A stretch of 20,000 nt of DNA from Chiloscyllium plagiosum (lineage: Eukaryota): NCBI RefSeq assembly GCF_004010195.1, contig NC_057756.1:2461488-2481487 (forward strand), written 5' to 3'. The notes under the pieces were generated by a model. That model did no database searches, had not been told where the DNA came from, and saw only the letters and a program-made list of their open reading frames with translations. Each line of letters begins with the position of its first letter. The stretch's first letter is position 1. Position numbers and translations under genes: made by a program. Positions 1-19,912 of the stretch are shown one piece after another.

Positions 1-70
1 ATACTGCCGTGTTTGTACTGTAAATAGTTAGTTGAACTTGGAAACAAGTTATATAATTTGTCTCCTGCAG

Positions 71-91
71 AACACAAGAAATGCAAAGAAG
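71..91 (+). CDS. 21-nt heptad microexon of a putative butyrophilin/BG-like coiled-coil tail (xHKKCKE)
   Basis: ttgtctcctgcAG|aacacaagaaatgcaaagaag|GTaagc: strong acceptor and donor, exactly 21 nt, open in phase 1. Confidence 0.8.
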
Positions 92-779
92 GTAAGCGTT
101 ACACAAATTTTGATGACTAGCGAAGTGAATATTTCCTCAACTGTGATCAAAATTCATCCTCCAAGGCACGCCTCCGAATCACCATTAATTCTAGTTCTGG
201 TCGTCATTTTAATTTAATATTATTTAATGTAACTTCTGTCACACATCTCTGCCTGCGGCCCAAGACAGACACATGTTAAAAGATAGAACTGTTGTGGTTC
301 TGTTCGCCGAGATGGGAGTTTGTATTGCAGATGTACTCGTTCATAGTATGACAAAAGCAGCTAGAGCCCGTGAAATGACGAAATTGTTGAAACGTTTCAG
401 AAGAATCGCAGATGCCAGTGGGATGAGCATGTACTGGGCTCGAAAAAGTCTCAAGTCGATATCGGCTACTCCTCATGTCCTTGCCAGTTTGCGATCTCAA
501 AACATTTGTAATGTAAAGGTTTCTATTTGTTGTGGGAGATCCCATTTCCAAGTACCAGCAAAGACAAGCAAAATGACGGAACTTCATAATGAATATATAA
601 AGTTTTGTTGAGTTTCATTTTCATACAGTTCATTAAAACACGAAGAATGGGAAAATACATGTGTTTATTTTTTTCCTAAATCGCGACATTCAGTTCTATC
701 TTTTTGAAAGTTTGTGAGAAGATTTGTAGCTCGGATGTTCGTTGTTGTGGTTCTGTTTGCCGAGATGGGATTTTGTGTT

Positions 780-819
780 GCAGACGTTTCGTCCCCTGTC
801 TAGGTGACATCCTCAGTGC
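780..819 (-). ncRNA. Minimal type I hammerhead ribozyme motif (PLE pLTR)
   Basis: Minus strand reads gca-CUGAGGA-u-gucaccu agac aggggac-GAAAC-GUC-ugc: core intact, stem II with one mismatch, 3-bp stem I, palindromic ACGU in place of helix III. Confidence 0.75.
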
Positions 820-930
820 TTGGGAGCCTCCTGTGAAGTGCTTCTGCGATGTTTCCTCCGGCATGTATGTTTGTCTCCACTATAAATGCCGGAGGAAACA
901 TCACAGAATCGCTTCACAGGAGTCTGCCAA

Positions 931-970
931 GCACTGAGGATGTCACCTAGACAGAGAACGAAACGTCTGC
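931..970 (+). ncRNA. Minimal type I hammerhead motif, stem II partly decayed
   Basis: CTGAGGA 934-940, GAAAC 960-964, GTC 965-967; two stem II substitutions relative to the mirror copy. Confidence 0.65.
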
Positions 971-1769
971 AACACAAAATCCCAGCTCGGCAAACAGAAC
1001 CACAACAACGAACATCCGAGCTACAAATCTTCTCACAAACTTTGAAAAAGATAGAACTGAATGTCGCGATTTGGGAAAAAAATAAACACATGTATTTTCC
1101 CATTCTTCGTTGTTTAACTGAACCGTATGAAAATGAAACTCAACAAAACTTTATATATTCATTATAAAGTTCCATCATTTTGCTTGTCTTTGCTGGTACT
1201 TGGAAATTGGATCGCCCACAACAAATAGAAACCTTTACATTACAAATGTTTTGAGATTGCAAACTGGCAAGGACATGAGGAGTAGCCAATATCGACTTGA
1301 GATTTTTTCGAGCCCAGCACATGCTCATCCCACTGACATCTGCGATTCTTCTGAAACTTTTCAACACTTTCGTTATTTCACGGGCTCTAGCTGCTTTTGC
1401 CATACTATGAACGAGTCCCACCTTGATCTGTTCACAGCAGTATGGTGAAAAATGTCTCCCAGTCTTTCTGAAGAAAGAAGGCTGAACATATCTACATTCA
1501 CGACCACCCTGCTCCACCAGATCGATCTTATTTAAATATTAAACAATTCGCTATTAAATACTCCAACTTTCTTCTGTTTAGAGATGTGGCCACGGGTACC
1601 TGCATTGACCCCAGTTATATCCATCTCTTTGCTGATTAACCGGCATATTCCTTGTTGCAGTTCTTCTATGACACTCAACTGCAGCTCAATAACGTAACTG
1701 GAACTGTTCTCCTCAAATAAATGGAATTAGAAATACATACCTGATTCATTTCCAATGTCCAACCCTCTT

Positions 1770-2860
1770 CCAGCTGCATTTGGTCCAGCTCTGACTCATT
1801 TTATCCCTGTCTCGAAATCATAGTTTCCATAATTATCGATATACTGGATAGCACTACCCACCACACCACTACCATGACCTTGACTATGCATCTTGCTTCC
1901 TAGAAAGATTGTATTCCATCTTCTCAGTTCGTCCATCTCTGGCTCATATTTTCCAATGATGTGAACTTTCTCAAGGGGTCGATCGAAATGTCCAACTATT
2001 TCCTCAACCCACGATTCCCCATCACTGTGCTTAACAGGTCTCTCAGCTGTGTTCAAGCCATCTCCTGCAAGTTGACCCTCAACCACTCTCTTACCTCCAC
2101 AACAGTGATAGTGTCTTTTTCGTCCTGACATGACATATTTGGAGAAAGCACATCCGAAGTTTCTAAGTCAGCCTCATCCACACCACTGATCGTGCGAAAT
2201 GTAAGCTCCTCCAGTTCGTTGTTTGCCTTCTACAGGTACCACTTCTGACAAGATACCATATTGTATACTTTCCAACATCTCCATTGCACTTTCCCTTACA
2301 ATCGCAGAAGGTGTTCCATCTGCCAGTTTTATTTTTCTCTCCGCAATATTCAAGGCCACAGACGTAACTTTGAGGGGAATAGCTGATTTATCAGAACTTC
2401 ACTCAATCTGGTCAATTGTATTTGCTGTTCATAGTTTGGTCTGTTCTACAGTGCAGAGACGAAGCACAGACTGGGCGACCACACTTCAGTCCAACAATGT
2501 TCCGCCTGTAACTATAACCCCAAGCTTCCGGTCCGTTGCCAATTCAACAGGCTACTGTTGTTTCACGCCAATAGAGTAGTATTGGGCTATCTGCAGTGCT
2601 CCAATGAAGTTCAGCACAACGTGGACGCACATTCACTAAATCTCCATTCCTGAACACTTCCGTCTCCTGGACTGAATATCGATTTCAACATTTCTATATC
2701 TTCAGCACATTCACCGATTCCTTATCCCAAGCATGCATACCAAGATTTCTCATCAATTGGTTTGCTACGATAAGCAGTCAATTATCTGCCATTAATGGTC
2801 CATCTATTTCGTGCTATCCATTATCCCAAGCTGACGCTTTCTCATTCATTTATCCGCCCA
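1770..2860 (+). mobile_element. Old degenerate Penelope-like element: RT C-terminus, GIY-YIG endonuclease and 3' UTR
   Basis: Relic translations KDCIPSSQFVHL (about 1904-1940), TSLNLVNCICCS*FGLFYSAETKHRLGD (from 2396; decayed VY..YIGET) and GLNIDFN (about 2669); stops and frameshifts; boundaries approximate. Confidence 0.75.
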
Positions 2861-2862
2861 AC

Positions 2863-2952
2863 TACCTCTCTCTCTCTGTCTCTCTCACCAGATGTGGATT
2901 ACAATACGGAGAGGGAGTGGGTGAGAACGAGTGACAGAGAGAGAGAGAGGTA
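2863..2952. repeat. (CT)n and (GA)n microsatellites arranged as a short inverted repeat
   Basis: tacc(tc)5tgtc at 2863-2880 versus gaca(ga)6ggta at 2933-2952. Confidence 0.75.
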
Positions 2953-3950
2953 TCTCAACTGACAGCGAGACTGAAGCTCATCTATGAGGACTGAGATGGA
3001 AAAAGTATAAATACAAAGAGGGCTAGAGTGACGAATTTAGAAGTAAAGGATAATATGCAAGTGCACGTGTGTTCATCGAGATCAAGAGAGAAAGGGAGGG
3101 GCAAGAGACAGGAATTGTCGTGGACAGAGCTATTTATACACGGACAGACTCTTGCGAAAAGTGGTTAACGATGCCAAGGGTGAGAAATTTTAAAAAAAAA
3201 AGCACAAGTGTGAAAGTCAAATACAGAGATAACTGCAGTTCATAAAATAAACAACAAAAATATTGAAGGTTAGCAAAGCTGATGCTAACATGTTCTGATT
3301 AGGGCACGAGAGGAAAATACAAGCTGGAACCTTCGAGTTTTGAATTTAAGTCACTAAAAGTGTGTGTGAGGGGGGGATGATATCTATAGCCACTATGTAT
3401 TACAGGAAATATGGAAAACAATCTCAACATTCATAACATTTAACACTGTCGTAACGCCTTTTGGATCAAAATCAATGCGAAGAAGTTGAATGGTGTAATT
3501 TAATTATGTGCTTGGTATGAAAACAAACAAAAAAGTCGTTGCATGTGGTCAGTTTGAACGAAACGCAGAAATGTCTGCAGAAACTCAGTAATGTGAAGTT
3601 TTAAGTAATCGTCAGTTGACTGAAAATGCTGACTATACATAGATGCTGCCAGATTCGTTGAGTGTCTCGAGCAAGTTATGGTTTTAATCATTTGACACGA
3701 TTAATAATGTGGCCAATAATGAATATTCCTTCACTGTTGGTAACAGCATTCAGAAATATTTCTTCATGACAAAACAAAATGTTAACTTTAATATGGTATA
3801 GGGTAATTTATAGAATACTTAGTAGATGAGCAGATATGAGGAATAGAAATTAGTGATGTTTAAAAGAAAGTAGATGCAAATTAGTAACGATTTGCATCAA
3901 GCAAAGTCGATTGTAGAAAATAAGCACTCTTATTATGTGTTGTCCTTCAG

Positions 3951-3971
3951 ATCTGGAAAAGGGAATATTTG
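3951..3971 (+). pseudogene. Possible inactivated 21-nt heptad exon (DLEKGIF) with donor GT>AT
   Basis: tgttgtccttcAG|atctggaaaagggaatatttg|ATagga: good acceptor, 21 nt ending in G, one base away from a GTAGGA donor. Confidence 0.4.
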
Positions 3972-4141
3972 ATAGGAAGATTGAAGAGAAAGAATGCATC
4001 GAGTTATTTTTATGTTTAATTACCAATGGAAACAGTTAACTCTGGTCACGTGGATGGAAAATTTCTTCAAGTCTGTATGATGGCATACAGAAAAGCCCTT
4101 TTTGACAATATAAAGGAAAGCAAAACTTATTTTCTACCAGA

Positions 4142-4430
4142 TATGGAGTTGCCAGTGCTGGAACGGGGTGGATAAAGTTAAAGGTCACAAAACACCAGCT
4201 TACAGTCTAAAAGATTTACGTGAAAGTAGAAGCCTATGGAGGTTTGCTCCTTTGTCAGGTAGCTAGCGGAGTAGGTGTTTAGGTCACAGAACATATAAGT
4301 AAAGGATCAAATTGTCATCAACAGATACAATATATTAGGCAAATCTAAACTGCTGTTAAGTATTTAGTCACTCAGAATGGCGAGACAGGTTTCAATTAAT
4401 TAACACACAGATTTCAGATTTTCTTTTCAG
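4142..4430 (-). mobile_element. Inverted pLTR/3' end of a second PLE family with a decayed hammerhead
   Basis: Reverse complement of 4352-4379 matches 13028-13055 at 25/28; 4143-4260 is homologous to 18325-18447; relic core ctgacaa-aggagc..ctcc on the minus strand. Confidence 0.75.
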
Positions 4431-4865
4431 TCTCAGTGCTCAAGCACGTTCGGCCTCGGATTTTGGTTGAATGCCTTCCAAGGCGAACTTCAGAAAACAC
4501 AAAAATGCAGAATCGTGCAGTCGAGGCTGATAACCAAGATCAGTACCAATTTGGACGCCCTCAAACGGGATGTTGGGTTTCTGTCGTACTTCAGGTGACC
4601 ACACCATAGACTGCACTCTCACACCTACACTCACACGCACACGCATACACAAGCTCTCTTACATAAAAACACTGCCATACAAACCCTCTCTCTGACACAC
4701 GCATTCTGTCACACCACATTGACGTCCATACCACTCACTGGTTTAGATTTTTAGCACTGGTGCACACACTCACTCAAGCATGCTGACAGAGACCCTCACA
4801 CACACATGCTCACTCCCTCAGCTACACGCACACACACATTTATAAGTTTATGGAGGGAATTTGCA
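4431..4865 (+). mobile_element. PLE GIY-YIG C-terminus and CA-rich 3' UTR (left part, interrupted by CR1)
   Basis: Frameshifted relic resembling SASD..LQG..LI.K...LNRD.GF.S of shark PLE endonuclease ends, followed by a CA-rich tract at about 4615-4840. Confidence 0.65.
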
Positions 4866-6144
4866 ATTAGCTTCATCGAGTCTTCGAGATATACAAAACG
4901 GCAACAGACCCTTTGGTCAAATCGTCAATGCCGACCAGATATCTCAAAATTATCTCTTCCCACTTTTCAAAAGCCATCCCATATCGCTCCAAACCCTTCT
5001 TATTCATTCACTCATCCAGATGCTTTTAAACGTTGCAATTGTATCAGCCTCCACCACTTCGTCTGGCAGTTTGTTCCATGCTCACACGACCCTCTGTGAA
5101 AACGTCACCCCTCAGGTTGCTTTTATAACGTTCCATGCACCCTACGTGATTGCACTCCAGTTCTGGACACCTCCACCCCAGGGAAAATTCCTTGCCCATT
5201 TACCATATGCATGCCCTTCAGATTTCATTAACTTCTATTCGGTCACGCCTCAGCTTCTGAGCCTCCAGGGAAAACGGCCATAATCTATTCAAACTCTCCC
5301 GATAGTTCAAATCCTCCTATCCTGGCACTATCCTTGTAAATCGTTTGGCAGAACATACTTCCGATCAGAAAAAGACAAGAATTGCACACAATATTCCAGA
5401 AGTGGCCGAATCAATATCCTGTACACCCTCAGCATGATCTCCTAACTACTTTACAAAATATACAGAACAACAAAGAAAAGCATACCAAATGCTTTCTTAA
5501 CTGTACTATCTACTTGTGACATTATTTTCAAGGAGGTATGAGCCTCACGCCAAGGTCTCTTTGATTAGCAACACTCCCGAGGACGTTATCATGAAGTGTA
5601 TAAGGCATGCTAAGATTTGCTTACCCAAAACGAAATTTATCTGTATTAAACTCCATCTGCCACTACTTATCCCTTCTGTCTATCTAATCAAGATTACGTT
5701 ACAATCTGAGTTAACCTTCTTCGTTGTTCACGATAGCTACAATTTTGGTGTCATCTGCAAACTTGCTATCTATACCGCTTCTGCTCCCATCCAAATCATT
5801 TGCGTAAATGATGGAAAGTAATTGACCCAGTACCAATCCTTGTGGCCCTCCATTGGTCACAGGCTTCCAGTCAGAAAAAACAACTCTCCACGACCACCCT
5901 CTGTCTTCTAACTTACAGCCAGTTATGTATCAAAATAGGCAGTTGTCCTTGCATTCTATGAGATCTAATCTTGCTAATCAGTCTCCCATGGGGAAACTTG
6001 TCAAACGCCTTATGGAAGTCCATTGAGATAGCGTCCACCACTCTTCCCTTATCAATCCTCTTTGTTACTTCTTCAAAAAACTCAATCAACTTCGTGAGAC
6101 ATGTTTTCCCATGCACAACGCCAAGTTGACTATATCTAATCAGT

Positions 6145-6354
6145 GCTGAAAACGTGTTGCTGGAAAAGCGCAGCAGGTCAGGCAGCATCCAAGGAGCAAT
6201 AGAATCGACGTTTCGGGCATGAGCCCTTCTTCAGGCTCATGTCCGAAACGTCGATTCTCCTGCTCCTTGGATGCTGCCTGATCTGCTGCGCTTTTCTAGC
6301 AACACATTTTCAGCTCTGATCGCCAGCATCTGCAGTCCTCACTTTCTCCTCGAA
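6145..6354. mobile_element. PLE pLTR fold-back insertion (81-bp arms 6145-6225 and 6234-6314, 8-nt loop) nested in CR1 RT
   Basis: 11-bp TSD atctaatcagt (6134-6144 and 6355-6365); minus-strand hammerhead core CUGAAGA-agggc-ucau-gccc-GAAACGUC at 6207-6234; same family as 8744-8870. Confidence 0.9.
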
Positions 6355-8737
6355 ATCTAATCAGTCCTCGCCTTTCTAAATACATGAAAATTCCTGTCCC
6401 ACAGGATTCATTCCAGCAACTGGCCAGCCATCGACGTCAACCCCACTGGTTTATTGTTCCCTGATTTGTTCTTACCACTTGTCTTAAATATTAAAACCAC
6501 GTCAGCCAACGTCCAGTCGTTCGGCACCACCCCGCGCCCCATGACTATTAATGATATCAATATTTCGGAAAGGGGCCCAACAATCACTTCCCTACCTTCT
6601 CACGGAGTTCTAGGTTACACCTGATCAGGTCCCGGGGTTTTATGTATTTCTTGACATTCAGCACTTCCTCCTCTGTAATATGGACATTTTTCAAGATGTC
6701 ACAATCTATTGCCTGGCTATCTGCCAAGTCCTCCTCCACAGTACACACTGATACAAAGTGCTCGTTTAGTATGTCCCCCAACTCCTGCGGCTTCACATAA
6801 AGACCGCCTTGCAGATCATTGAAGGGCCTTATTTTCTACTGAGTTAACATTTTGTCTTCAATTTCTTTGCAAAAAGCCTTAAGATTATCGTAAACCCTAT
6901 TTACCAAAGTTAACTCATGTCATCTCATTGCACTCTTGATTTTTTTCTTAAGTGTACTCCAACAGCCTTAGACTCTTCTATGTATTCACTCGATCTATCC
7001 TCTCGATCCTTGATACATGCTTCCTTCTTTTTCGTAGCGAATCCTTATATTTTTCCACTCATCCAAATTTCCCTACACCTGTCAGCCCTTCCTTTCACTG
7101 TAACAGGAATGCACTACGTCTTGACTCTTCTTATCCATTTCTGAATGATTCCCATTTTCCAGCTGTCCCTTTATGTGCGAACATCTGCCCGCAATCAGCC
7201 CTTGAAATTTCAGGGACATCAAAATGAGCCTTCCTCCAATTCAGAATTTCAACGTTTAGATATGATCCATTCTTTTGCATCACTTTCTGAAAAACTAATG
7301 GGATTACAGTTGCTGGCCCTAAACTGCTCCCCCACGGACACCTCCGCCAGCTGCCCTGCCTTATTGCCCAAGGGTAGGTCAGGTTTTCCAACTTCTATCT
7401 GGCAGTTACATCACATAGTGAATAAGAAAATTTTCTTTCACATCCTTAACAAATTCCTCTCCATCTTAACCCTTAATGCTGCGGCAGTGGCAGTTTATGT
7501 TTGGAAAGTTAACGCCACCCTATTATTATGACACACAACTGAAATCTCTTTACAAAATTTTTTATCAATTACCGCCTGACAATTAGGGGGTCTATAATAC
7601 AATCTCGATGAGGTGGACCCCGCTTTGCTATTTTTCAGTTCTACCCATACAAATTTCCTGGATGTACTTGCAGGAATATTCTCCATAAGTACAGCTGTAA
7701 CGCTATCCTTTATCAAAAACGCCACTCCCCCTCCTCTCTTGCCTCCCGTTCTATACTTGTGGTAGCATTTGCATCCTGGAACATTTACCTGCCAGTACTG
7801 TCCATCGCTCAGCTGCGTTTCTGTATTTGCTGTGATAAGATAAAGGAACCATGGACGACAAGAACAGAGGAGCTTCTCGTCAAAAGGAAGAAGGCAGCTT
7901 ACTTAAGGTTGAAGAAGCAAGGACAGCTTTCGAGGATTAGAGGCTTTCTAGAACGGAGCTCAGAAATGGACTGAGGACAGCCAGGAGGGGGCACGAAAAA
8001 GGATGGCAAATAGGATTAGGGAGAACCCAAAGGCAGTTTACTCTTACGTGAGGAATAAGAGAATGATCAGGGGGAATATAGGGCCGATCAAGGATAGGCT
8101 AGGGAACTTGTGCGTGTAGTCTGAGCAGTTGCTTCAGTTTTCTCCAAAGAAAGGGATCTTGCTGTGAATGAGAATTTTCAGGAGCTTGGATGCAGACTTG
8201 ACCTGATCAAGATTGATGAAGTTGCTGTGCTAGAAAATTTTGAAAACATTAAGGTTGATAAGTCCCCAGAGCCAGACCAGATTTATCCTAGGCTACTCCG
8301 GGAAGCAAGAAAGGACGTTCCTAAGCCACTGGCAAAAATCTTTGCGTCCTTACTCTCCGTGGGATTCGTAGCAGAGGATTGGAAGGAGACGAATTTTGTT
8401 CCTCTTTTCAAGAAATATTAATGGGGAAATCCCTGGCAATTACAGACCAGCCAGTCTTACGTTTGAGGTCAGCAAAAGTTTGGAAAGAATTCTGAGGGAT
8501 AGCATCTATGACCATTTGGCAAAACATAGCATTATTAAAGACAATAAGCATGGCTTTGTGAGAGGAAATTCATGCCTCAAAAATCTTAATGAGTTCTTCG
8601 AGCAGGTGACAAGTCAGTTCGAGCAGTGTATGTGGTGTATATGGATTTCAGCAAGGCACTTGATTAGTTTCCCCATGGTAGGATCATTCATAATGTTAGG
8701 AAGTATGGGATACAGGGAGATTTAGCTATCTGGGTTC

Positions 8738-8778
8738 AGAATTCCTGATGAAGGGCGTATGCCCGAAACGTCGATTCT
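8738..8778 (+). ncRNA. Minimal type I hammerhead ribozyme, core intact
   Basis: agaauuc-CUGAUGA(8745-8751)-a-GGGC guau GCCC-GAAAC-GUC(8770-8772)-gauucu; stem I 6 bp with one bulge; predicted cleavage after C8772. Confidence 0.8.
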
Positions 8779-8870
8779 CCTGTTCTTTTGATGCTGCCTG
8801 ACCTGCTGCTTTTTTCCAGCAACACATTTTTAAGCTCTGATCGCCAGCATCTGCAGTCCTCACTTTCTCC
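8744..8870 (+). mobile_element. 127-bp PLE 3' end (pLTR) insertion inside the plus-strand CR1
   Basis: 9-bp TSD ttcagaatt (8735-8743 and 8871-8879); sequence matches 6234-6350. Confidence 0.9.
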
Positions 8871-10709
8871 TTCAGAATTGATTGGTTGACAGAGGGCAGA
8901 GATTGGTTGTAAATGGGAAGTATTGTGCCTCGAGGTCAGTGTTCAGTGGGGTCCCACAGTGCTCTGTTATTGGGTCTTTGCTCTTCATAATTTTCATAAA
9001 TGACTTGGATGAGGAGATTGAGTGGTGGGTTAGTAAATTTGCAGATAACACAAAGGTTGGAGGGGTCGTCGATATTAACGTGGCTATTTCAGGCTGCAGC
9101 GTGACATATACAGGATGCGGAGCTGGGCTGAGATATGGCAGATGGAGTTCAACTGGATCGGTCCAAAGTGATGCATTTTGGAGTGTCAAACTGAAATGCT
9201 CAATATAGATTTAAAGACAGGATTCTTTGTAGCGTGAAGGAACAGAGGGATCTGGGTGTGTAAGTACATAGATCCCTCAAAGTTGCCAACCAAGTGGATA
9301 TGGTTGTTAAGAAAGCATATGGTATTTTGGCTTTTATTAGCACGGGGATCGAGTTTAAGAGTTGCGAGGTTTTGCGACAGCACTACAAGTCCCTGGTGAG
9401 ACCACACTTGGAATCTTGTGTCCAGTTGTGGTCGCCCTACTATAGGAAAGATGCAGAGACTTTGAAGAGGGTGCAAAGAAGATTTACCAGGATGCTGCCT
9501 GGACTGGTGGGCTTGCCTTTTGAAGAAAGGTTCAGTAGGCATAGAGTTTTATCTCTGGAGAGAAGGAGGAAGAGAGGAGACCTGATCAATGTATACAAGA
9601 TAATGAGAGGAATGGATAGAGTCAATAGCCAGAGACTTTTCTGCAGGGCATGGTTCATGTGTATGAGGGGTCATGGTTTTAACGTATTAGGGGAAAGATA
9701 TAAAGGAGACGCCAGAAGTAGGTTCTTTACACAGATAGTTGTGAATGCTTGTAATGCGTTGCCAGCGGTGGTGCTGGAAGCAGAGTCATTAGGGACATTT
9801 AAGCGAATGCTGGACAGGTACATGGAGAGCAGTGGTTTGATGGTTGCGTAGGTTAAGTTATTATATTTTACGTTAGGATTAAAGCTCGGCACAGTATCAT
9901 GTGCGGATGGGCCTGATCTGTGCTATACATTTCTATGATCCACGTTCTTGTTCGATATCCCAGTTCTATGTTCCTAACCATGCCTTGAGTTCATCTGACT
10001 TCCCTGAAGTAAATGCAGTTTAGTTTATCAGTCTTATCTTGTTCTCTAATTTGTCACTGACTACTTGACTCGCTTCTTTTCTCAACTGTAAAAATTTCAG
10101 ATTTTTCTCTTTCCACACTATCTCCTGGAGTAACCCACCACCTTATTAGTTTAAATTCTCCCCCAGCAGCTGCAGCAAATCTTCCTCCCAGTATATTAGC
10201 CCACGCTCAAATCAGGTGCAACACTTCTTTTTTGTGCAGATCACTTCTATGCCAGAAGGAATTCTCAGTGTCCAAAATTGTGAATCCTTCTCCTATACAC
10301 CAGCTACACAGCTATGCATGTATCTGCTCTGTAGTCCTATTCCTCCCCTTAGTTATTTTTAGCACCAGAAATAATCTAGTTATCACTGCCTTCGAGGACC
10401 TCTTTTTTATTTTCATTTCTTCTGAACTTTCTACTCTCTCCCATCAGAATCTCACAATTTTTCCCATTCTATGTCATTCGTTCCAATGTATAAAATAACC
10501 TCTTGCTGGTGTCTCTCCCATTTGAGAACATTTTGTACCCCTTCTGAGACATCCTTGATCCTGAAATACACAATTCTGATTTTTCGTTGCTGCCCACAGA
10601 AACATCTGCCTGTGCCTCTGACAAGAGAGTCCCTCACATAATCGATAGTTGGAGCCTGAATTACATTCAATACTGTCGAGCCTGTCTCTGTGCCAGAAAC
10701 TTGGCTGTT

Positions 10710-11698
10710 AGAACATAGAACATAGAAAAATACAACGCAGTACAGGCCCTTTGGCCCTCGATGTTGCGCCGATCCAAGCCCACCTAACATACACTAGCCC
10801 ACTATCCTCCATATGCCTATCCAATCCCCGTTTAAATGTCCATAAAGAGGGTGAGTCCACCACTGCTACTGGCAGGGCATTCCATGAACTCACGACTCGC
10901 TGAGTAAAGAATCTACTCCTAACATCTGTCCTATACCTACCACCCCTTAATTTAAAGCTATGCCCCTCGTAATAGCTGACTCCATACGTGGAAAAAGGTT
11001 CTCACGGTCAACCCTATCTAAACCCCTAATCATCTTGTACACCTCTATCACGTCACCTCTAAACCTTCTTTTCTCCAATGAAAATAGCCTCAAGTGCCTC
11101 AGCCTTTCCTCATACGATCTTCCTACCATATCAGGCAACATCCTGGTAAACCTCCTCTGCACCCGTTCCAGTGCCTCCACATCCTTCCTATAGTATGGCG
11201 ACCAAAACTGCACACAATACTCCAGATGCGGCCGCACCAGAGTCTTATACAACTGCAACATGACCTCAGGGCTTGGGAACTCAATTCCTCTACCAATAAA
11301 ATCCAGTATGCCATATGCCTTCATTACTGCACTATTTACCTGGGTGGCAACTTCCAGAAATCTGTGTACATGGACACCAAGATCCCTCTGCTCATCCACA
11401 CTACCAAGTATCCGACCATTATCCCAGTACCCCATCTTTTTGTTACTCTTACCAAAGTGAATCACCTCACACTTACCTGCATTGAACTCCATTTGCCACC
11501 TTTCTGCCCAGCTCTGCAACTTATCTATATCCCGCTGTAACCTGACACATCCTTCCTCACTGTCAACAACTCCACCGACTTTCGTATCATCCGCAAACTT
11601 GCTCACGAAATCTTCTAGCCCCTCCTCCAGTTCATTTATAAAAATGACAAACAGCAATGGTCCCAAAACAGATCCTTGCGGAACACTGCTACATTCCC
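10710..11698 (-). mobile_element. Young 5'-truncated CR1 LINE with an uninterrupted RT C-terminal reading frame
   Basis: ORF 10947-11732 has VPQGSVLGPLLFVIFIN..KFADDTK..LVRPHLEYCVQFWSP; (TTCTATG)n tail at 10710-10727; 5-bp TSD ctgtt (10705-10709 and 11699-11703). Confidence 0.95.
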
Positions 11699-12657
11699 CT
11701 GTTCGTGCTACATTCCCCTGAAAATGCATCATCCCCTACACTTTCCAAAATACCATACTTGTTTGAAATGAGGAAATCCACAGAAGACTCCTGCACTACT
11801 TGCCTTTTTTTTTACTTTTACTGGAGTTAACCCATTTGTGTCTGCACCTGCGGGTTTTCTCCCATCCTAAAACTGCCATCCATCACACCCCGTTGCTCAT
11901 GTCAATTCCTCATTGCCTGAAAATGTCGCTACAATAGAACCATTCGATTTGTTAGCATTCGCAACCAATGGCATTTGTTGCAGGTATAATCTTCAGTAAC
12001 ACATAAACTCTACCAAAATTGCCACTTCCGACAAGAAGAGCATATGACTCGACTAAAGGCTATTTTTGCTTCTTCAAATCTACAAACTAAAAAGTAGCAT
12101 TTTCTTAATCCTTTACAAACCCCTGCGCCAGTCTAATTTTAGATGTATGACTTCAGAGGCATATCTGAATTAAAAACTTAATCAATAAAGTGTCCACTCT
12201 ACTCACTCTTGTGGATGTACAGCAAGGCGATACTTAAAGCTTTTTGCTTATCTGTTTCTGCGCTGTGACCTCTCCCAAACAGATTTCTCCAAACTTAGTT
12301 GCGAATTTCGCTGTTTGTTATGATCTCCTAGACGCACTTCTATGTCCAGAGATGCATGATTTCATTCAGCAAAGAGAGTAACTACGCAAGTTCACTGTTA
12401 TGTCATTTAGCAGTGTGGACTTCCTTCACTCTCTCTCTCCTGCACTTACCATGTGCTGCTTTTGTCTGTCCTTCTCCCTTTCAAACGTGCATTGTTTTGA
12501 CGTTTTTTTCCCCCTCCAAAGTCACAAAACAATGCAACAGCGTATGAAACAGCAATTGTTCCTCCTGGAATTCGACGAAGTAACCTCCAACACGTAAAGT
12601 ACCTCAAAACAGGAACAGCCTGTTCCAGCAAGAAAATTTCCCTGTCATGTGTCTCAG

Positions 12658-13118
12658 ATTTGCAGAAACATTTCATTTTGCTCGAGAACTATACAATCTT
12701 TAAGATTTTAGGCAATGTTAAATTCTATAAATTCTTACTTTGCAAAACAAAATGTCTGACTTCAGATTGCGACACAGACAGACATTAACCTCACACAATG
12801 TCACGCACTCTGGCAATTTATCAATTCTTACTTTGCAGAGAAAAGAAAAAGCTGACTTCAGATTGGGACACAGACTCTAACCTCACACATTAAAGTGTCA
12901 CGCCATGCATTGTCTGAGCAGAGATGTCACATTTCTTTAACAACTGACAAAACCTTATGTTTAATCGGGTCTGTGACTTGTTAGAAGTTTTGGAATTTAC
13001 ATATTAATCAATCGAATCCTGCAACCACATTCTGAGTGATTAAAGATTTAACAGCCATCATGGTTGGTCTCATATATCGCATCAGTTGTTTGACACATTT
13101 ACTTATAAATCCAGTGCC
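12658..13118 (+). mobile_element. Continuation of the PLE 3' UTR after the CR1 insertion
   Basis: Resumes at atttgca (also at 4859-4865); 12985-13110 is the inverted homologue of about 4290-4420. Confidence 0.7.
12711..12903 (+). repeat. Imperfect tandem duplication, period about 93-100 bp
   Basis: aattcttactttgca..ctgacttcagattg.gacacagac..taacctcacaca..tgtcacgc starts at both 12730 and 12823. Confidence 0.85.
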
Positions 13119-13369
13119 GTTTTTAAACGTATCTGATTTATTCTACCCAGATGTTGTGTGTTTTTTTTTTCAGTACTAGTGCATAGCACAGGGAAATGAA
13201 ATGATATAACATTATGTTAATTAGTCTTCGGGGTGAAGATATAATATAACTTACGTGAAAAAAACACAGCCATCTGGAAGTATTTGTACATATCAAAAGA
13301 GAAAGAAAAAATAAGTGTTATGCTGATCCTGTAAGCATCACAGATTGCCTGACGAATTGAAATAAAAAA

Positions 13370-13478
13370 TTGAGAAAGAGGGATACAGACAGAGGGCGAG
13401 TGAGAGACAGATAGAGAGATGATGAGAGAGAGAGAGGGAGAGAATGAGAGAGAAAGTCGGAGAGGAAGAGAGATGGAT
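13370..13478 (+). repeat. GA-rich low-complexity tract
   Basis: Degenerate (GA)n with GACA/GATA variants. Confidence 0.85.
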
Positions 13479-13710
13479 TTAAAACACGTGATATCCAGAA
13501 TGTGGGAGAAAAACTCTGAAAGCCAAACATCTGCTACCATTACTTGCCTTGTGATTTGAAATTTCGAGTTTGCAATTTATGCAAATCAGAAGAGATGCCT
13601 GTTTCAAGTGAACACTTCTATGAAATTTCTTTCCGTTGTCACAAAGCATTCTCAACGTAAATACTACATTTATCATTTTCATACATTTTTCTTTCCATTT
13701 TACGATCCAG

Positions 13711-13731
13711 AACTGAAGAACAGCAAAGAAA
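13711..13731 (+). CDS. 21-nt heptad microexon (ELKNSKE)
   Basis: tttttctttccattttacgatccAG|aactgaagaacagcaaagaaa|GTaagt: long pyrimidine tract, perfect donor, 21 nt, in frame with the other microexons. Confidence 0.85.
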
Positions 13732-14176
13732 GTAAGTGATATAAAAATTGATGTAAACATAAGTTAAATGATATTTCAACAATAATAATCAAGTAAAACT
13801 TGCTAATATGTACACATGTCGACGCAATGCTTGTGGAAGTTAAAATTTCGGTTATTTTTATGGAAGTTGGTGAGCGACTTAACATAGAAATGCATTAAGT
13901 AAATCAGACACGGTTTTCTTTATGGGAGCTTATTAACAGTTTTACATAGAAAATGTATCAGATAAATCAGACACATGAGTTTATCAGTGCCAATTCTATC
14001 ACTTTTCGTAAGAAAAGGTACACGAAGACCAAGAAAACTGCTAAAAATTGTTCTTCAACAAATGCATCGAAAAGTGCATCCTTGCTTTTTCCAAAAAAAA
14101 ATGCTTATACACGGTGGATTTGATGTCATTTGGATACCTTAATGACACTTCCTTTTTTCTTTAATTTGCCCTGCAG

Positions 14177-14197
14177 AATTTGCAAAGGAACAGGCAG
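14177..14197 (+). CDS. 21-nt heptad microexon (KFAKEQA)
   Basis: cttccttttttctttaatttgccctgcAG|aatttgcaaaggaacaggcag|GTatgg; branch-like ccttaat near 14137; 21 nt. Confidence 0.85.
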
Positions 14198-14376
14198 GTA
14201 TGGGCGTTATCATTTTAGTAATGTCAGACGAACAGGTGATTCAGTGATCATTTTGATGGTGAAACCGAGGTAACGTTTCATGAAATTGTTCTCACGAGGA
14301 CCAGAATTTCATTAAAAATAATCATTTCATCGCCTAAGAGGCATTGATTAATTATTTGCCGTAGGGTACTGGCAAG

Positions 14377-14679
14377 TTTTAGATTACTTACAGCGTGGAA
14401 ACAGGCCCTTCGGCCCAACAAGTCCACACCGACCCGCCGAAGCGCACCCACCCAGACCCATTACCCTACACCAACCGTTAGGGGCAATTTATCATGGCAA
14501 ATTCACCTAATCTGCACGTTTTTTGGACTGTGGGAGGAAACCGGAACACGCGGAGGAAACGCACGCAGACACAGGGAGAATGTGCAAACTCCACACAAAC
14601 AGTCGCCTGAGGTGGGAATTGAACCCAGGTCTCTGGCGCTGTGAGGCATCAGTGATAACCACTGTACCATCGTGCCGCA
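14377..14679 (-). mobile_element. HE1-type tRNA-derived SINE
   Basis: Minus-strand Pol III A box tggtacagtgg (14659-14669) and B box ggttcaattcc (14615-14625), conserved central core, CR1-like tail ending gtaatctaaa; homologous to 15301-15600. Confidence 0.9.
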
Positions 14680-16130
14680 CACTCAATCCTGGAATATTTG
14701 GAATGCAAGGACACCTACTTGAACTTCTATTTATTCACTTAGTTCCAATTTCAACATCATAATTTCAAAAAATCCGTTATCAAACTCCGAGATGGAAGAC
14801 TTTGCTCTTCTTCTGCAACTTGGCCTTTTACGGTATGGCCCACAGACTGCAATTCGCCAAGAGAGGTAACGGGATCTCCTCCACAATTATCTTCAACACC
14901 GCTGCCCTGCAAGGCTCCAGTAAAAAAAAATCCTCATACATTCCAGAACGTGTGGCCAAATTCAGCTCAAACTATATTTCAATAGATCTGAGGAAACCAC
15001 CTTTGTGGATCGTTAATTAAACAACAAGACAGAATATCGGAAAGAGAGCAACAGCTTTCTGGCATGGTGTGAGGACAACAATCTGTCCTTCAATGGCAGC
15101 AAAACAACGGTGCCAATAGTCAACTTCAGGAAGTGGATTAGATGACGCCACCATGTCCATACCAATGGTGTGAGATGGAAAAACTCGAGAGTTAGCAAGG
15201 ATTCATCTTTATCCAATCATTTCAACTACGCAATCAACAAAGCAAACCAAAGCCTTGAATTAGTCAAACGATTATGGAAAATCGGAATGGCCACAATAAT
15301 TGGATTAGATTCCCTACAGTATGGAAAAAGGGCCTTCGGCCCAACAAGTCCACACCAACCCTCCGAAGAGCAACCCACCCAGACCCGACATTTACCCCTG
15401 ACTAATGCACCTAACACTGTGGGCAATTTCGCAAGGTTAATTAAACTAATCTGCATACCTTTGAATTGTGGGAGAAATCTTGAGGAAATCCACGCTGACA
15501 CGGGGAGAACATAAAAACAGAGGTTCGGTCGAGGGCAGAATCAAACTTGGGTCCCTGGTGCTGTGAGGCAGCAATGCTAACCACTGAGGCACCGTGCCAC
15601 TCGCACTTTCACCTGGACTGTTGGATTTCTTCCCAGTGTTATAATCTCTATACCGCCACCACAGCTTCCTGTGTTGTTATTAATTATTACTTTTGTTGCA
15701 TATAATCTACAGACGACATCCTTTCTGGATTCGTGAAAGCTTGATATGGTAACTGCTCTATCCAAAACGGAAATAAAAATTACAGAGAAATGTTAACACA
15801 ATACACCCATCATGAAAACAGGCCTTCTTTCTGTGAAACCATCTATGCTTGCTGCTGTTTTGCTAAAGCAAGAAACATAAGCAAAGACCCCAACAAGCAC
15901 GTTTATAGACTCTTCCAAACTCTTTCAAAATTTAAAAAGCAACACTTGTCAACAGATTTAAAAACAGCCTATCCCGCGCTGTTATCAGACATAAGAAAGG
16001 ATATCTCATATTTTACATTTGATCTTTCTCTGCACCTTAAGTGGAGCTATAACTTTATATGCCATATTCTGTTGTCTTGCCCTCGTACACGTGAGTAAAC
16101 TCATTGTCTTGTGAGTGTGATGAAGTTTCA
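14680..16130 (+). mobile_element. Degenerate Rex1/Babar-like LINE RT and 3' end, interrupted by the SINE at 15301-15600; may extend left to about 14270
   Basis: Relics KDTY (about 14707), ISSTIIFNTAALQGS (ORF 14802), LAWCEDNNLSFNGSKT..VNFRK (15058-15133), YGNCS (about 15745), RFKNS (about 15954). Confidence 0.7.
15301..15600 (-). mobile_element. HE1-type tRNA-derived SINE, more diverged
   Basis: tRNA head gtggcacggtgcctcagtggttagcattgctgcctcacagc; tail ending gggaatctaatc; alignable to 14377-14679. Confidence 0.85.
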
Positions 16131-16289
16131 CTTTATCTCGAATTAACTAGATATGTGCAGCTCTAAAAAAAAGTACAAATCCGAAACCCTTATTCAGTCA
16201 TTCTTGATCTTCAAGCATTTTGGAATTTATCTTCGAATGCGTAATCTAGTTGTGCTTCCTCATCAGCCATCTTCTAACTGGCGCTAAGT

Positions 16290-17705
16290 TTGTGTTTGAC
16301 CATGTCAACACAGCTTCTGAACATATTACAACGTATTTTAAATTTTCAACCATGGACAAAATAGGTAAATTCCTGACGGCAGTGAAAGATCTTGGAATAA
16401 AGGTCGCATTCGATCCAGTGTGGCATAAAATATCCCTCCAAAAACAGTTATGTATTTGTCTCAGAAGACAAACTCTCGACTGGTTGGAATTGTGCCATCG
16501 AAATAATATGACAGTTGGTGTGGATGTAAATCAATCTTGTCAGCGCCAATATATCGCTGCAGATTTACTCATGTGAATCGCTTTGGTCCATCCATATACA
16601 ACTCTTTTATCGATGAACTTACATGCATAGAACATAGAACATAGAGCATTGAAGAATACAGCGCAGTACAGGCCCTTTGGCCCTCGATGTTGCGCCGATC
16701 CAAGCCCACCTAACATACACTAGCCCATTATCCTCCATATGCCTATCCAATGCCCGCTTAAATGCCCATAAAGAGGGAGAGTCCACCACTGCTAATGGCA
16801 GGGCATTCCATGGACTCACGACTCGCTGAGTAAATATTATAATTTCAGAAAATTGGGTGGTAAAAGATTATTGTTCCATGCTCAGCACTACTTGCAAATT
16901 ATTTGACATTGAAGTAGTCTACGTTCTAAATCCAAGGAGCTTGGCAGTTGGCAAGTCAAATTTTCACCACTCAAATTTCAGGCAATGACAAACTGTTATA
17001 ACAGAATTTAACCATGATCCCTTGTATTTCAACGGTTCTACCGTGTTGCAGAAACATCCCCTATAAATAGTCTTCGGGCCACAACCTTCAGAAGCACACT
17101 ACATAAAACCAGCTACTTCAAAAGGAGTTTATACGCCATGAATACTGCAGTGAGTAACCTAACCTCTGGATTCCAACGCCTGACCACAGTCGACAACACC
17201 CATGTCAGGATCATCTTCGAAAATTAACTACTTTGGCTTAGTTGCAGCTTTAATAATGTTCAAGAAGCTTGAATCAAACCACCACAAAGTAACCCTGTTA
17301 TCGGCAACAATTCAATAAATAACTAATTCATTCACAAACGAAACTCAGTAGCAGAACTGGTCTCTCTACAAGATGCACTGCAGAATTTCATTCGTAGATA
17401 CTCAGCATTTTCCAAACATGCGACACTGATTAGTTACTGATTGCGACAGACACAGAGCAACATCACAACTTGCAATTCCCATCAAAGCGACTTCCATGGC
17501 GATTTGATATATTATCGCCATTCCTTCAATCCACTGGGTGAAAATCCTGGAATTCCCTCCTGACGTCATGGTGGACAAACCTACAGCACATAGAGTGCAA
17601 GAGTTCAAGTTTTCAGCTAACAACGAGTTCTCAAGTGGAATTAGGAACTAGCAAGAAGACTGGCCAGCAAGTGATGCCCACATCTCACGACTTTGTAACG
17701 AAAAT
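16290..17705 (+). mobile_element. Old CR1/L2-group LINE fragment (RT to 3' end), interrupted at 16626-16834
   Basis: ORF 16250 has LGIKVAFDPVWH..QTLDWLE (decayed LDIKAAFDRVWH) followed by a FIDEL relic at about 16606-16620; boundaries approximate. Confidence 0.65.
16626..16834 (-). mobile_element. Short 3' fragment of the young CR1 family
   Basis: Near-identical to 10710-10908 with a (TTCTATG)n tail. Confidence 0.95.
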
Positions 17706-18253
17706 AAACGTGGAAAATGTCAACGTGGAGAACATGTAATATGTTGACTTTAGCAATGATTTTATTGAAAACAGTTAACTGATTATGCAAATAATGTTTT
17801 TTTTCAATGTATTTATTGAATTTTCGACCTATCGAAAATTCATAAGAGGTGCCAATAAGGCATGGGTTACATGAACTAAAAAGGATCGTCAAGCAAACAT
17901 TTCATGAATTTTGGCAAATGCCAATAATTATAACAAGGTCAATGTCAATTCAGGTTCTGTTCACAATATTTATTTACCTTCCATCTTCTATATTGTGACA
18001 CAAATCTGTGCCTGGAGTGGAACGTGGATTCATGTTTTGAGACTTTAACAACAAAGCAGCTGTTTGAAAAGAAGCAAATTTATGTCACTGTCTTTTTAAT
18101 TCTTTTCTTGTATAAACTGAGCTGTTTCTAAAAAAAATGGAATTTCATTCATGATATAATCACAGTTTGGTTTCGAAGTTAAAATTTGTGCATATTTTGC
18201 TCAGATTTGCAACTGTGAGCTACTTAAAACAAAACTTTTCTTCCATCTCACAG

Positions 18254-18274
18254 ATATTGTGAAGCAACAAGCTG
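18254..18274 (+). CDS. 21-nt heptad microexon (DIVKQQA)
   Basis: cttttcttccatctcacAG|atattgtgaagcaacaagctg|GTaagg; 21 nt, phase 1. Confidence 0.85.
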
Positions 18275-18324
18275 GTAAGGTCAACAATAATATATGCATA
18301 ATTCTATTCATTCCATTACCAAGA

Positions 18325-18447
18325 GTCAGGTGATGAAAGAAAAGTGTTGTGAGAGCTTATCATTTCAAATAACCTGTTGAACAGGAAGCTGGTGTGATGT
18401 GAATTCTGATTTTGTTCAACACAGTCCAAAACCAGCACATACCCACA
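18325..18447 (+). mobile_element. Highly decayed PLE pLTR end with a hammerhead relic
   Basis: gtgatga..gagagctt (decayed CTGATGA..GAAAGCT) followed by sequence homologous to the reverse complement of 4143-4230. Confidence 0.6.
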
Positions 18448-19264
18448 CAATATTCTGAGGACTGCTGTTGCTAAAGCTGTCATGTAACTAAACGTTTAAA
18501 CGATTTATTTTTCATCAACTCAGAAAGTCATAATACTTTGGACATAAGCATCATGCCTATTGTCCGCTTAAGTCTTGCATTGGTCAAGAATGAAGATATT
18601 TCCATTCTTTCAAGACAAATCAATATGCTTTGCAACAAAGGACAGGAATACAATGTGATGCAGAAAAAAAATGAATTACTTAAGCAGAATTAAAATTGAA
18701 ATTTGTTGAGGACATACTATACATATGCCAGTGAAATACAAAAAAGGATGGCTGTCTAGATTTAAATGTAGAGCCACTTAGTATCAAAAAGAGAGAGCTG
18801 AAGTTAGAGATTACCTCCTAAATATAGGCATTGCGTGGCTTGAATCATGATATGTAAAATTATGCAATACCGAAGACAGTCATTTGCATATTGTGTTTCT
18901 ACATTAACAGGTGTGTTTTTAACTTATATTTCTAGAACTACTGTCTCCATTCCACTCATAAGAAACATAAAATTAAATCTGTGCTATATATAGTCACGAT
19001 CGTAGGTAAACATTTTGAAGATCAATATCAACTGGATTTCAGCGAAGATTGATACATGATAGTTTCCGTATTATGACATAATGTAGATTATCTTTTTAAA
19101 GGTAGCCTGATTGATTCAAATGTCGATTCTTCCACACTTTCAATAGTGAACTGTTTATCATACAACCGGGAGGTTAACAGACAGCAGAGATAGAATGATC
19201 ATGATTCTGATTTTAACAAGAAATGTATTGCTTGGGAAGGAAAATCATAAATAACATGTCATTT

Positions 19265-19325
19265 TAGACTGATAGAGTCTTTCAGCAGGGAAATAGACAT
19301 CTTGGTTCAACTTGTCTGCATCTTC
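19265..19325 (-). mobile_element. Possible very short decayed CR1 3' tail
   Basis: tagactgatagagtctttcagcagggaaatagac..ttggttcaacttgtc resembles 4868-4925. Confidence 0.35.
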
Positions 19326-19410
19326 AACTATGTTCACTTACTTTCAATAAAATTCAACACTCATGTTGCTTTAGCTAATTTTTAATTATCTGATCTATGT
19401 TTTCCTGTAG

Positions 19411-19424
19411 TGCTTGTGAAGTGA
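19411..19424 (+). CDS. Putative terminal coding exon (VLVK*) of the heptad-exon gene
   Basis: ctatgttttcctgtAG|tg ctt gtg aag TGA continues the phase-1 frame, resembles the preceding heptad (DIVK/VLVK), and AATAAA follows 37 nt after the stop. Confidence 0.6.
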
Positions 19425-19460
19425 CTGTCAGTTATTGATAATACAAATAATTGGTCTTCC

Positions 19461-19466
19461 AATAAA
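19461..19466 (+). terminator. Candidate polyadenylation signal (a second AATAAA at 19665-19670)
   Basis: AATAAA just downstream of the putative stop codon; the hexamer is common in AT-rich DNA, so support is positional only. Confidence 0.45.
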
Positions 19467-19806: not shown

Positions 19807-19833
19807 GGAAGCGCGTGAGGAAGCGCGTGAGGA
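19807..19833 (+). repeat. 12-bp tandem repeat (ggaagcgcgtga)x2.25
   Basis: Perfect copies at 19807-19818 and 19819-19830. Confidence 0.9.
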
Positions 19834-19866
19834 TTAGGAAAGAGAGAGATGCAAAAATTGCCCGAA

Positions 19867-19867
<1 letters not shown>

Positions 19868-19912
<45 letters not shown>

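Follow-up and report, generated by a model that had tools for sequence, protein, structure and literature searches.

A long tail encoded at one heptad per exon has been described for the chicken BG genes (PMC5938342, PMC4046983, PMC8813856). According to these papers, a BG gene contains signal, IgV and transmembrane (TM) exons, which are followed by 27-37 tail exons. Within each BG tail exon, codons 4 and 7 are the hydrophobic ones, and a BG gene can terminate with a stop codon shortly after the repeat in the last exon (PMC5938342). Short phase-1 tail exons encoding helical repeats are also present in butyrophilin, ERMAP and MOG genes; these genes carry IgV, IgC and TM in front of few tail exons (PMC12841164), and in butyrophilins B30.2 follows the tail exons. 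TRIM proteins consist of RING, B-box, coiled coil and PRY-SPRY, and their coiled coil is used for oligomerisation (PMC8813856).

The window analyzed here is a 20,000-nucleotide stretch of the genome of the shark Chiloscyllium plagiosum. In the original prediction, it was proposed to hold a hidden gene of BG-like design, in which each 21-nt phase-1 exon encodes one heptad. The wider region contains such an array of candidate exons (Table 1). These segments are likely to be coding microexons, all part of a single shark gene of very large size, which probably belongs to a cartilaginous-fish family with a coiled coil and a B30.2 (SPRY) domain. As in chicken BG genes, the array has a long run of 21-nt exons, a phase-1 split codon, one heptad per exon and a presumed coiled coil; furthermore, exon copy number changes and early stops may truncate the product. 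BG genes are further characterised by a single IgV exon, by a TM exon placed immediately in front of the tail, by an end that lacks B30.2 and has its stop in the last exon or the penultimate one, and by linkage to the MHC. In contrast to the BG tails, the shark array has about 65 exons in 462 kb, no Ig exon and no convincing TM exon was found with it, and its hydrophobic codons are 2 and 5. Cys stands at codon 5, and two exon types alternate in a 14-residue unit. Short phase-1 helical-repeat exons are shared with the butyrophilin-type genes, including the cluster on scaffold C37 of this genome. However, those genes have IgV-IgC-TM in front and few tail exons and are located on another scaffold, and butyrophilins have few heptads before B30.2 whereas the array has 65 heptads and no B30.2 exon within 160 kb downstream by tblastn. 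As in TRIM proteins, the coiled coil may precede a B30.2 domain. Unlike in TRIM proteins, no RING or B-box was found in the closest relatives or near the array (Pfam, 146 of 158 candidate exons from the flanks).

Table 1 Features of the heptad-exon array and its proposed relatives. Positions with C47 refer to the scaffold that holds the window; other positions are those of the window.
Feature	Position	Strand	Description
Heptad-exon array	G000:C47:2298844-2760998	+	about 65 phase-1 21-nt exon candidates, 462 kb
Whole window	1..20000	+	inside the array, which starts about 163 kb before and ends about 280 kb after
Exon candidate no. 21/65	71..91	+	21 nt, phase 1, Lys/Cys (K) type heptad; acceptor 2.3, donor 7.0, open frame
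Decayed heptad-exon copy	3951..3971	+	array-like 21 nt; acceptor 3.3, exon-model score 10.4, donor at instead of gt
Exon candidate no. 22/65	13711..13731	+	21 nt, phase 1, K type; acceptor 4.2, donor 4.6
Exon candidate no. 23/65	14177..14197	+	21 nt, phase 1, Ala/Glu-Gln (A) type heptad; acceptor 6.2, donor 5.3
Exon candidate no. 24/65	18254..18274	+	21 nt, phase 1, A type; acceptor 7.5, donor 5.8
Decayed copy, previously predicted terminal exon	19411..19431	+	acceptor 1.7, exon-model score 7.5, in-frame stop, no GT/GC
Coiled-coil + SPRY model, Callorhinchus			XP_042192744.1 ('nuclear-pore anchor-like', 1697 aa)
Coiled-coil + SPRY models, Scyliorhinus			XP_038671249.1, XP_038672308.1
Coiled-coil + SPRY model, Narcine			XP_069775385.1

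The four 21-nt segments are part of a long array

The four segments have the form AG-[21 nt]-GT with donors gtaagc, gtaagt, gtatgg and gtaagg, and phase 1 is open in each, as had been predicted. When thresholds of at least 2 for the acceptor and at least 3 for the donor were used, the window contained exactly four sites of length 21 on the + strand and none on the - strand; for the other lengths from 12 to 45 nt, there was at most one site per length on either strand. A cruder splice filter gave five sites of length 21 (three of the four candidates and two others) versus four of length 25. Therefore, the window by itself is modest evidence.

The wider 790-kb region was decisive. By splice sites alone, 45 sites of length 21 were found on the + strand versus 4 on the - strand, and all 45 fall within one 462-kb span. 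The other length and strand classes (n = 67) had a mean of 3.3 sites and a maximum of 8. Across the three frames of the 45 exons, 17, 12 and 0 stop codons were counted, the last in the coding frame (phase 1). A combined score, which includes an exon model with the array itself as its training set (leave-one-out), was passed by 63 of 2630 sites on the + strand versus 0 of 2343 on the - strand. The final base is G in 62 of the 65 candidates. In 23 paralogous exon pairs, which are non-independent, pN was 0.18 and pS was 0.33 (pN/pS about 0.55). The introns measure 3.4 kb in the median and 36.5 kb at most, and coding DNA amounts to 1.4 kb within the 462 kb.

A search for more 21-nt exons upstream of the window gave 20 candidates on the + strand, and 41 candidates lie downstream. 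Thus, the segments proposed earlier stand as exon candidates, and their placement at the 3′ end of the gene has to be abandoned: the window is in the middle of the array. The first exon of the gene was looked for and not found. The segment at C47:2243036 was dropped as an upstream heptad exon because it is repeat-derived (self-BLAST depth 11, weak sites). When 146 candidate exons of the flanks were scanned for genes usable for synteny, only retroelement-type matches were obtained (zinc knuckle above and reverse transcriptase below the cut-off). A search of sequencing runs with window positions 18000-20000 listed no RNA run. Reads were also aligned to C47:2773000-2782250, which lies about 290 kb beyond the window on its downstream side and holds a candidate last exon, and no splice joint was observed among them. 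From run X5, of which about 2 in 100 was read, 1720 reads fell on repeat pieces of this stretch, and 94% of them continued into sequence unlike it. Runs X6 and X8 gave 0 reads, and the contigs of X7 were mainly on the same repeat pieces.

Decayed copies are present beside the exon candidates

The array has grown by tandem duplication of exon-plus-intron cassettes. In old cassette copies, whose flanks are about 70% identical, the frames are still open and the splice signals are kept. In addition, ten heptad-exon copies on the + strand (three on the - strand) have no donor, and two of the ten contain stops. One of them, at 3951 in the window, was overlooked in the earlier reading. Another is the segment at 19411, which had been taken for the terminal exon. 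It appears to be a decayed exon: the acceptor is weak, the 21 nt end where the donor has been lost (tt in place of gt), a stop is present, and 14 of 21 bases are identical to those of an array exon. AATAAA is found at about 19461, about 50 nt further on, and the segment could serve as an alternative last exon. The ten decayed copies and the pN/pS near 0.55 show that constraint is loose.

The joined exons are predicted to encode a coiled coil

A hydrophobic residue occupies codon 2 in 60 of the 65 exons (33 Leu, 13 Phe and 8 Met among the codon-2 residues), and 42 of these 65 have Lys at codon 4. The joined array (454 residues) contains only seven Pro and Gly in total. Its hydropathy shows periodicity peaks at 7, 3.5 and 2.33 and not at 3.6, a pattern that the 7-residue exon partly builds in. 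No hydrophobic 19-mer was found in the array product (maximum -0.37). K-type and A-type exons alternate at 47 of 64 steps (shuffle mean 32, p about 1e-4), and this alternation corresponds to a 14-residue unit. One A-type pattern had only four matches in the genome, all within the array, and the exon at 14177..14197 is among them. The amino acid composition may resemble that of the Drosophila sperm-tail protein Mst101(2).

If the array exons are spliced together, the product would be a coiled-coil rod with a length of about 455 residues or more. We infer a parallel two-stranded coil, in which position a would be Leu, Phe or Met and position d would be Cys or Tyr in every second heptad. Because position d is Glu or Lys in 22 of the 29 A-type exons, these heptads would pack poorly for a canonical coiled coil. 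The product may be a soluble intracellular spacer or scaffold without Ig domain or membrane anchor, in which the rod dimerises and holds a B30.2 domain at a distance. Alternatively, the rod might bind other coiled coils such as those of the cytoskeleton. Since each exon keeps both the frame and the heptad register, skipping, duplication or loss of one exon would shift the rod length by 7 residues without breaking the coil.

Ig, B30.2 and convincing transmembrane exons were not found around the array

The 820 kb around the window, which include 7 kb of upstream gaps, yielded neither Ig exons (IgV, IgC) nor B30.2 exons; a convincing TM exon was likewise not found. The original prediction placed IgV and TM exons upstream of the window. 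In the 197 kb upstream, of which 7,234 N bases are unreadable, no Ig exon was detected by motif scans, Pfam or tblastn. The Pfam scan covered the flank exons mentioned above, with gaps and weak-site exons outside it. The tblastn queries were the IgV and IgC of the butyrophilins of this genome; they matched the controls and nothing near the array. IgC-type (PF22705) matches numbered 37 among all 96 candidates scored, and none was on C47. The family search for V-set scored 150 of 1319 candidates and that for SPRY 150 of 293; therefore, they cannot show absence near the array. One hydrophobic candidate is a 135-nt open stretch with a good donor at C47:2237699, 61 kb upstream of the array. A homologue search with its 44 residues gave 0 of 15 candidates, which is a weak test, and the stretch can be read more simply as a long pyrimidine tract followed by a 36-nt exon of the family type. 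The idea that the array encodes the neck of a type II lectin was rejected, there being no C-type lectin motifs after the array.

The array is probably linked to coiled-coil and B30.2 genes of cartilaginous fishes

The motif [DE][LMF]xxC[KQREN] is present in 11 of 64 array exons. Among 214 retrieved B30.2 proteins, it occurs 12 times in Callorhinchus XP_042192744.1 (shuffle mean 0.18, maximum 2). Scyliorhinus XP_038671249.1 has three copies, and none of the remaining 212, butyrophilins and TRIMs included, has more than one. Like the predicted array product, the Callorhinchus and Scyliorhinus proteins have a long charged coiled coil with repeated D/E-Leu-x-x-Cys. The 21-nt motif pattern had 11 of its 14 matches on C47 (control 1). 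Exons of 36 nt with the same motif and phase had 11 of 15 genome-wide matches on C47 (control pattern 5); they lie upstream of the divergent B30.2 exons C47:994524 and C47:4577501, and one match lies upstream of the B30.2 paralogue C37:20720070. The B30.2 domains of the coiled-coil and SPRY relatives belong to the same divergent clade as three exons on C47. SPRY is the only Pfam domain in the public models of the relatives. Cassettes of 6 and 9 residues distinguish the isoforms of these models, as expected from skipped microexons. Sister arrays sampled on C47 consist mostly of 27/36-nt exons, unlike the purely 21-nt array.

No retrieved protein includes the array sequence, and array-type hexapeptides do not form a BG-like run in any of the 214 (no protein has more than seven matches); a few proteins surpass the shuffle maximum by one to three matches. 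When the C47 B30.2 alone was used as a query against longer proteins only, three unrelated TRIMs were obtained among 269 candidates. The Callorhinchus model begins with a hydrophobic stretch (19-mer 1.59); thus, solubility varies even among the relatives. We found no published definition of this group. Taken informally, its symmetric phase-1 microexons and D/E-Leu-x-x-Cys at the exon start are found in the array, and its long coiled coil is predicted there. One short motif, the exon phase and the location suggest that the array probably belongs to this family. Our search of the openly accessible literature found, among the papers listed, no report on such a shark microexon coiled-coil gene. 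To our knowledge, no function is known for any member.

Alternative explanations

A BG- or butyrophilin-type membrane protein, whose signal, IgV and TM exons would be hidden in unread gaps or located still further upstream and whose cytoplasmic tail would be the array, ending at C47:2781705, is improbable. The exon size and phase match BG tails, and PMC5938342 describes BG genes ending with a stop after the last-exon repeat. The segment at C47:2781705, 21 kb after the last array exon, has such features (acceptor 8.2, a heptad-like start, a stop, and ATTAAA 391 nt further on). Exons could be hidden in two assembly gaps, one of 3.1 kb and one of 3.8 kb, which precede the first array exon by 19-33 kb, and the 135-nt stretch is hydrophobic. 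However, the segment at C47:2781705 fits the decayed-exon class too, and further phase-1 candidates resume beyond its stop at C47:2842524. The 135-nt stretch has the simpler reading given above, no Ig exon was found in the 197 kb upstream, and none of the butyrophilin IgC matches among the scored candidates is on this scaffold. Two sampled butyrophilin genes of this genome use tail exons of 27 nt, not 21 nt, and the register of the array differs from that of BG. Thus, the heptad-exon gene proposed originally is retained as a prediction, and its butyrophilin or BG label is improbable; the little-studied cartilaginous-fish family is probably its home. Still less probable, and in our opinion very unlikely, is a formerly functional array that is now a decaying or silent pseudogene. 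The donor-less copies, the pN/pS and the missing first exon would suit such a gene, but no stop was found in the 45 exons picked by splice sites alone, the splice sites are intact over 462 kb, and even old cassettes retain open frames and signals.

The extent of the coiled-coil and B30.2 gene can be extended tentatively. The nearest + strand B30.2 exon of the divergent clade is C47:4577501, 1.8 Mb downstream, and no other clade B30.2 was found in between (150 of 258 candidates scored). Possibly, one + strand gene of at least 2.3 Mb begins with the 21-nt array as its N-terminal part and continues through 27/36-nt and 21-nt arrays to this exon. Every array sampled from 2.24 to 4.58 Mb is a phase-1 array of the + strand: about ten candidates of 27/36 nt lie at 2.84-2.91 Mb, motif-pattern matches at 2.99, 3.40-3.80 and 4.35-4.38 Mb, and 21-36-nt candidates directly before the B30.2 exon. 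Because the array sampled at 1.80 Mb (five candidates of 27-36 nt) is on the - strand, the + unit must begin between 1.80 and 2.30 Mb. Against a gene of this size, 82 kb without convincing exons separate the array from the 2.84-Mb block, far more than the longest array intron, public relatives have at most 1697 residues, and a minor part of the intervening 1.8 Mb was read. A 10-kb sample at C47:4135000 contained no exon candidate. When ten of the 27/36-nt candidates were compared with relatives by BLOSUM, the matches were weak (18-26, no control) and were set aside. Equally tentatively, such a gene would have hundreds of 21-36-nt exons and encode a rod of thousands of residues that carries a single B30.2 sensor at the tip. 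As microexons are born, die or are skipped, the length of this rod would be tuned heptad by heptad. The design would resemble that of BG but have an independent origin and no Ig, and standard annotation would not reveal the gene.

Biological significance

Genes that consist almost entirely of 21-nt exons evade gene prediction and short-read mapping; therefore, shark annotation can lack an entire family. If the proposed gene is real, its different register and lack of Ig would mean that the one-heptad-per-exon design arose again or survived from an older lineage of coiled-coil and B30.2 genes related to TRIMs and butyrophilins. The array documents exon turnover, with recent and old cassette duplications beside dead exons, and is a natural test of microexon gain, loss and splicing over multi-kb introns.

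An array of putative 21-nt exons around the window

Four 21-nt segments had been proposed as hidden exons in the window, and all four were present as described; the predicted splice junctions between them are 91>13711, 13731>14177 and 14197>18254 (window positions). When a generic splice-site score was used, exactly those four matches of length 21 were found on the + strand of the window and none on the - strand, and no other length in the 12-45 nt range gave more than one match. With a cruder splice filter, length 21 was separated less cleanly. The window is C47:2461488-2481487 on the + strand (C47 is the scaffold carrying the window), and the region read was 820 kb around it (C47:2101488-2921487), together with samples elsewhere in the 3.56-Gb genome. 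By eye, one B30.2 exon of this genome seems to recur unchanged in a database protein labelled Chiloscyllium plagiosum, so a bamboo shark is very likely the source. By splice sites alone, 790 kb contained 45 exons of length 21 on the + strand, all in one 462-kb span, and four on the - strand; the remaining length and strand classes gave a mean of 3.3 and a maximum of 8 (n = 67). Stop codons in the three frames of these 45 exons numbered 17, 12 and 0. When the score also included an exon model that had been trained, with leave-one-out, on array exons, 63 of 2630 + sites scored 12 or more, in contrast to 0 of 2343 - sites. The working set (score of at least 9.5) comprised 65 exons from C47:2298844 to 2760998, and their introns were 101 to 36,515 nt long (median, 3,390). 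The putative hidden gene is thus much larger than the original prediction had seen. The window does not contain its 3' end, as had been proposed, because the window exons are only nos. 21-24 of the 65 and the supposed last exon (window 19411) is a donor-less array-like copy. With AATAAA nearby, this copy might be an alternative last exon.

Anatomy and turnover of the array

Exon structure, phase, periodicity and turnover were observed directly in the array. When the split codon is numbered 1, codon 2 encodes Leu, Phe, Met, Val, Ile or Tyr in 60 of the 65 exons and codon 4 encodes Lys in 42. There are 36 K-type exons (Lys/Cys heptads), with Cys or Tyr at codon 5 in 23, and 29 A-type exons (Ala/Glu-Gln heptads), with Glu or Lys at codon 5 in 22. 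The two types alternate, the type switching at 47 of the 64 exon-to-exon steps (shuffle mean, 32; p ~1e-4). Two tight patterns, one per type, had four matches each genome-wide, in the array only, and controls gave 0. Therefore, the array represents one locus rather than a dispersed repeat. The conceptual product is 454 residues long (23% Lys, 16% Glu, 11% Ala, seven Pro plus Gly; net charge +8), and it lacks any hydrophobic segment.

The array grew by duplication of exon-plus-intron cassettes. Flanks were alignable in 23 exon pairs, with identities from ~70% up to 86-95%, and in these non-independent pairs pN was 0.18 versus a pS of 0.33. At C47:2664719-2667056, a two-exon cassette of ~1.16 kb is recently repeated in tandem, with intron flanks 86-95% identical. 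Array-like 21-mers with an acceptor but without a donor numbered ten on the + strand and three on the - strand. The decayed exon listed in the table is flanked by a K-type exon on either side, so that from the alternation an A-type exon would be expected there. At one exon site (L018, C47:2484936/2484939), a tandem CAGCAG acceptor makes two exon lengths possible, 24 or 21 nt.

Coordinates of array copies and related features
Feature	Position	Strand	Remark
Donor-less array-like 21-mers (among ten)	window 3951; window 19411; C47:2781705	+	acceptor without donor
Decayed heptad exon	window 3951-3971	+	donor gt changed to at; the window 3951 copy of the row above
Complete-looking shark butyrophilin genes	C37:18933550-18957800; C37:30590432-30608300		27-nt tail exons
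Divergent B30.2 clade exons, C47	994524; 1296638; 4577501	+; -; +	
Divergent B30.2 clade exons, C37	20720070; 22229878	-	
Family-type 36-nt exon	C37:21013189	-	293 kb upstream of one C37 clade B30.2 exon
Second 21-nt exon array	C47:3591413-3614233, also 3401127-3798361	+	same Leu-x-x-Cys type

Comparison with BG and butyrophilin genes

BG genes are described as starting with signal, IgV and TM exons, which are followed by 27-37 tail exons of 21 nt whose codons 4 and 7 are hydrophobic (PMC5938342); butyrophilins are described as V-C2-TM, a few heptads and then B30.2 (PMC4046983, PMC8813856). In contrast to BG, the hydrophobic codons of the shark array are 2 and 5. When all 96 candidates were scored, the genome gave 37 butyrophilin IgC matches, clustered on C37 (another scaffold, rich in butyrophilin and TRIM genes), and none on C47. 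The two C37 butyrophilin genes sampled possess IgV, IgC, TM, 27-nt tail exons and B30.2, and no array-like 21-nt exons were found in them. IgV exons had been expected upstream of the window. In the 197 kb before the array (7,234 unread bases, including gaps at C47:2265808 and 2276170), motif scans and Pfam on candidate exons found no Ig, RING or B-box exons, and tblastn with the genome's own IgV, IgC and B30.2 found no match, with positive controls. The array would work like a BG tail, but it departs from several defining features of BG and butyrophilin, and that label was not sustained. C47 also carries one V-set Ig exon (C47:10206275-10206583, +), which lies 7.4 Mb downstream, too distant and on the wrong side to be part of the array gene.

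Proposed relation to a coiled-coil and B30.2 family

A profile of five divergent B30.2 clade exons (three on C47, two on C37) retrieved gene models of cartilaginous fishes that have long coiled coils and in which Pfam recognized SPRY only, plus a sub-threshold PRY in one. Of 64 array exons, 11 contain the motif [DE][LMF]xxC[KQREN]. A 1697-residue Callorhinchus model has 12 copies of it (shuffle mean, 0.18) and a Scyliorhinus model has three; none of the other 212 proteins has more than one. Upstream of three clade B30.2 exons, 36-nt phase-1 exons begin with this motif (11 of 15 genome matches on C47, one on C37), as do 21-nt exons at C47 3.40-3.80 Mb. Because motif and phase are common to both lengths, the K-type exon appears to be a shortened version of the 36-nt exon typical of the family. 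The relatives have isoforms that are distinguished by cassettes of 6 and 9 residues, and none of the retrieved proteins contains the array itself. The array may belong to this family, as its short motif, its exon phase and its location suggest. Searches of the open-access literature turned up no account of a shark gene of this kind.

Extent of the gene

At C47 1.80 Mb, the sampled array runs on the - strand; between 2.24 and 4.58 Mb, all that was sampled runs on the + strand, and no intervening B30.2 was found. Therefore, one gene spanning 2.3 Mb or more is conceivable, if rather doubtful; it is at least as likely that there are several tandem genes and that the array gene has no B30.2. Downstream, no B30.2 or lectin exon was found in 160 kb. 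The first 82 kb after the array contain no convincing exons. They are followed by some ten candidate phase-1 exons in which lengths of 36 and 27 nt alternate (C47:2842524-2906908, +), and which may be the cluster's next gene or the array gene continued. Candidate 3' ends of the array gene are thus a stop at C47:2781705, window 19411 as an alternative end, and a continuation through this 2.84-Mb block to the B30.2 exon at 4.58 Mb. The sole notable upstream candidate, at C47:2237664, is a phase-1 exon of 36 nt, extendable to a hydrophobic 135-nt stretch for which no database match was found. About 4.5 kb upstream of it, C47:2231988-2233237 is CpG-rich and low in repeats, the sole such stretch in 790 kb, and may be either a promoter or a mobile-element remnant. 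Among 146 candidate exons in C47:2101488-2298800 and 2761000-2891487, no other recognizable host gene was found, and the only Pfam matches were of retroelement type. An AG/AGAT microsatellite (window 19867-20000) leads into a 1,288-N assembly gap directly past the window; this or other assembly gaps could hide an exon.

Proposed role of the array

We propose that splicing joins the array exons and that their product forms a parallel, dimeric coiled coil. Leu, Phe or Met would occupy position a, and Cys or Tyr position d of alternate heptads; Glu or Lys at d of the remaining heptads would loosen the coil. The product would be a soluble spacer or scaffold that dimerizes, and the dimer may present a B30.2 domain or bind to other coiled coils, in the manner of the BG 'zipper' tail and actin-myosin (PMC4046983). 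Because each exon keeps frame and register, gain, loss or skipping of exons would change the length of the rod and leave the coil unbroken.
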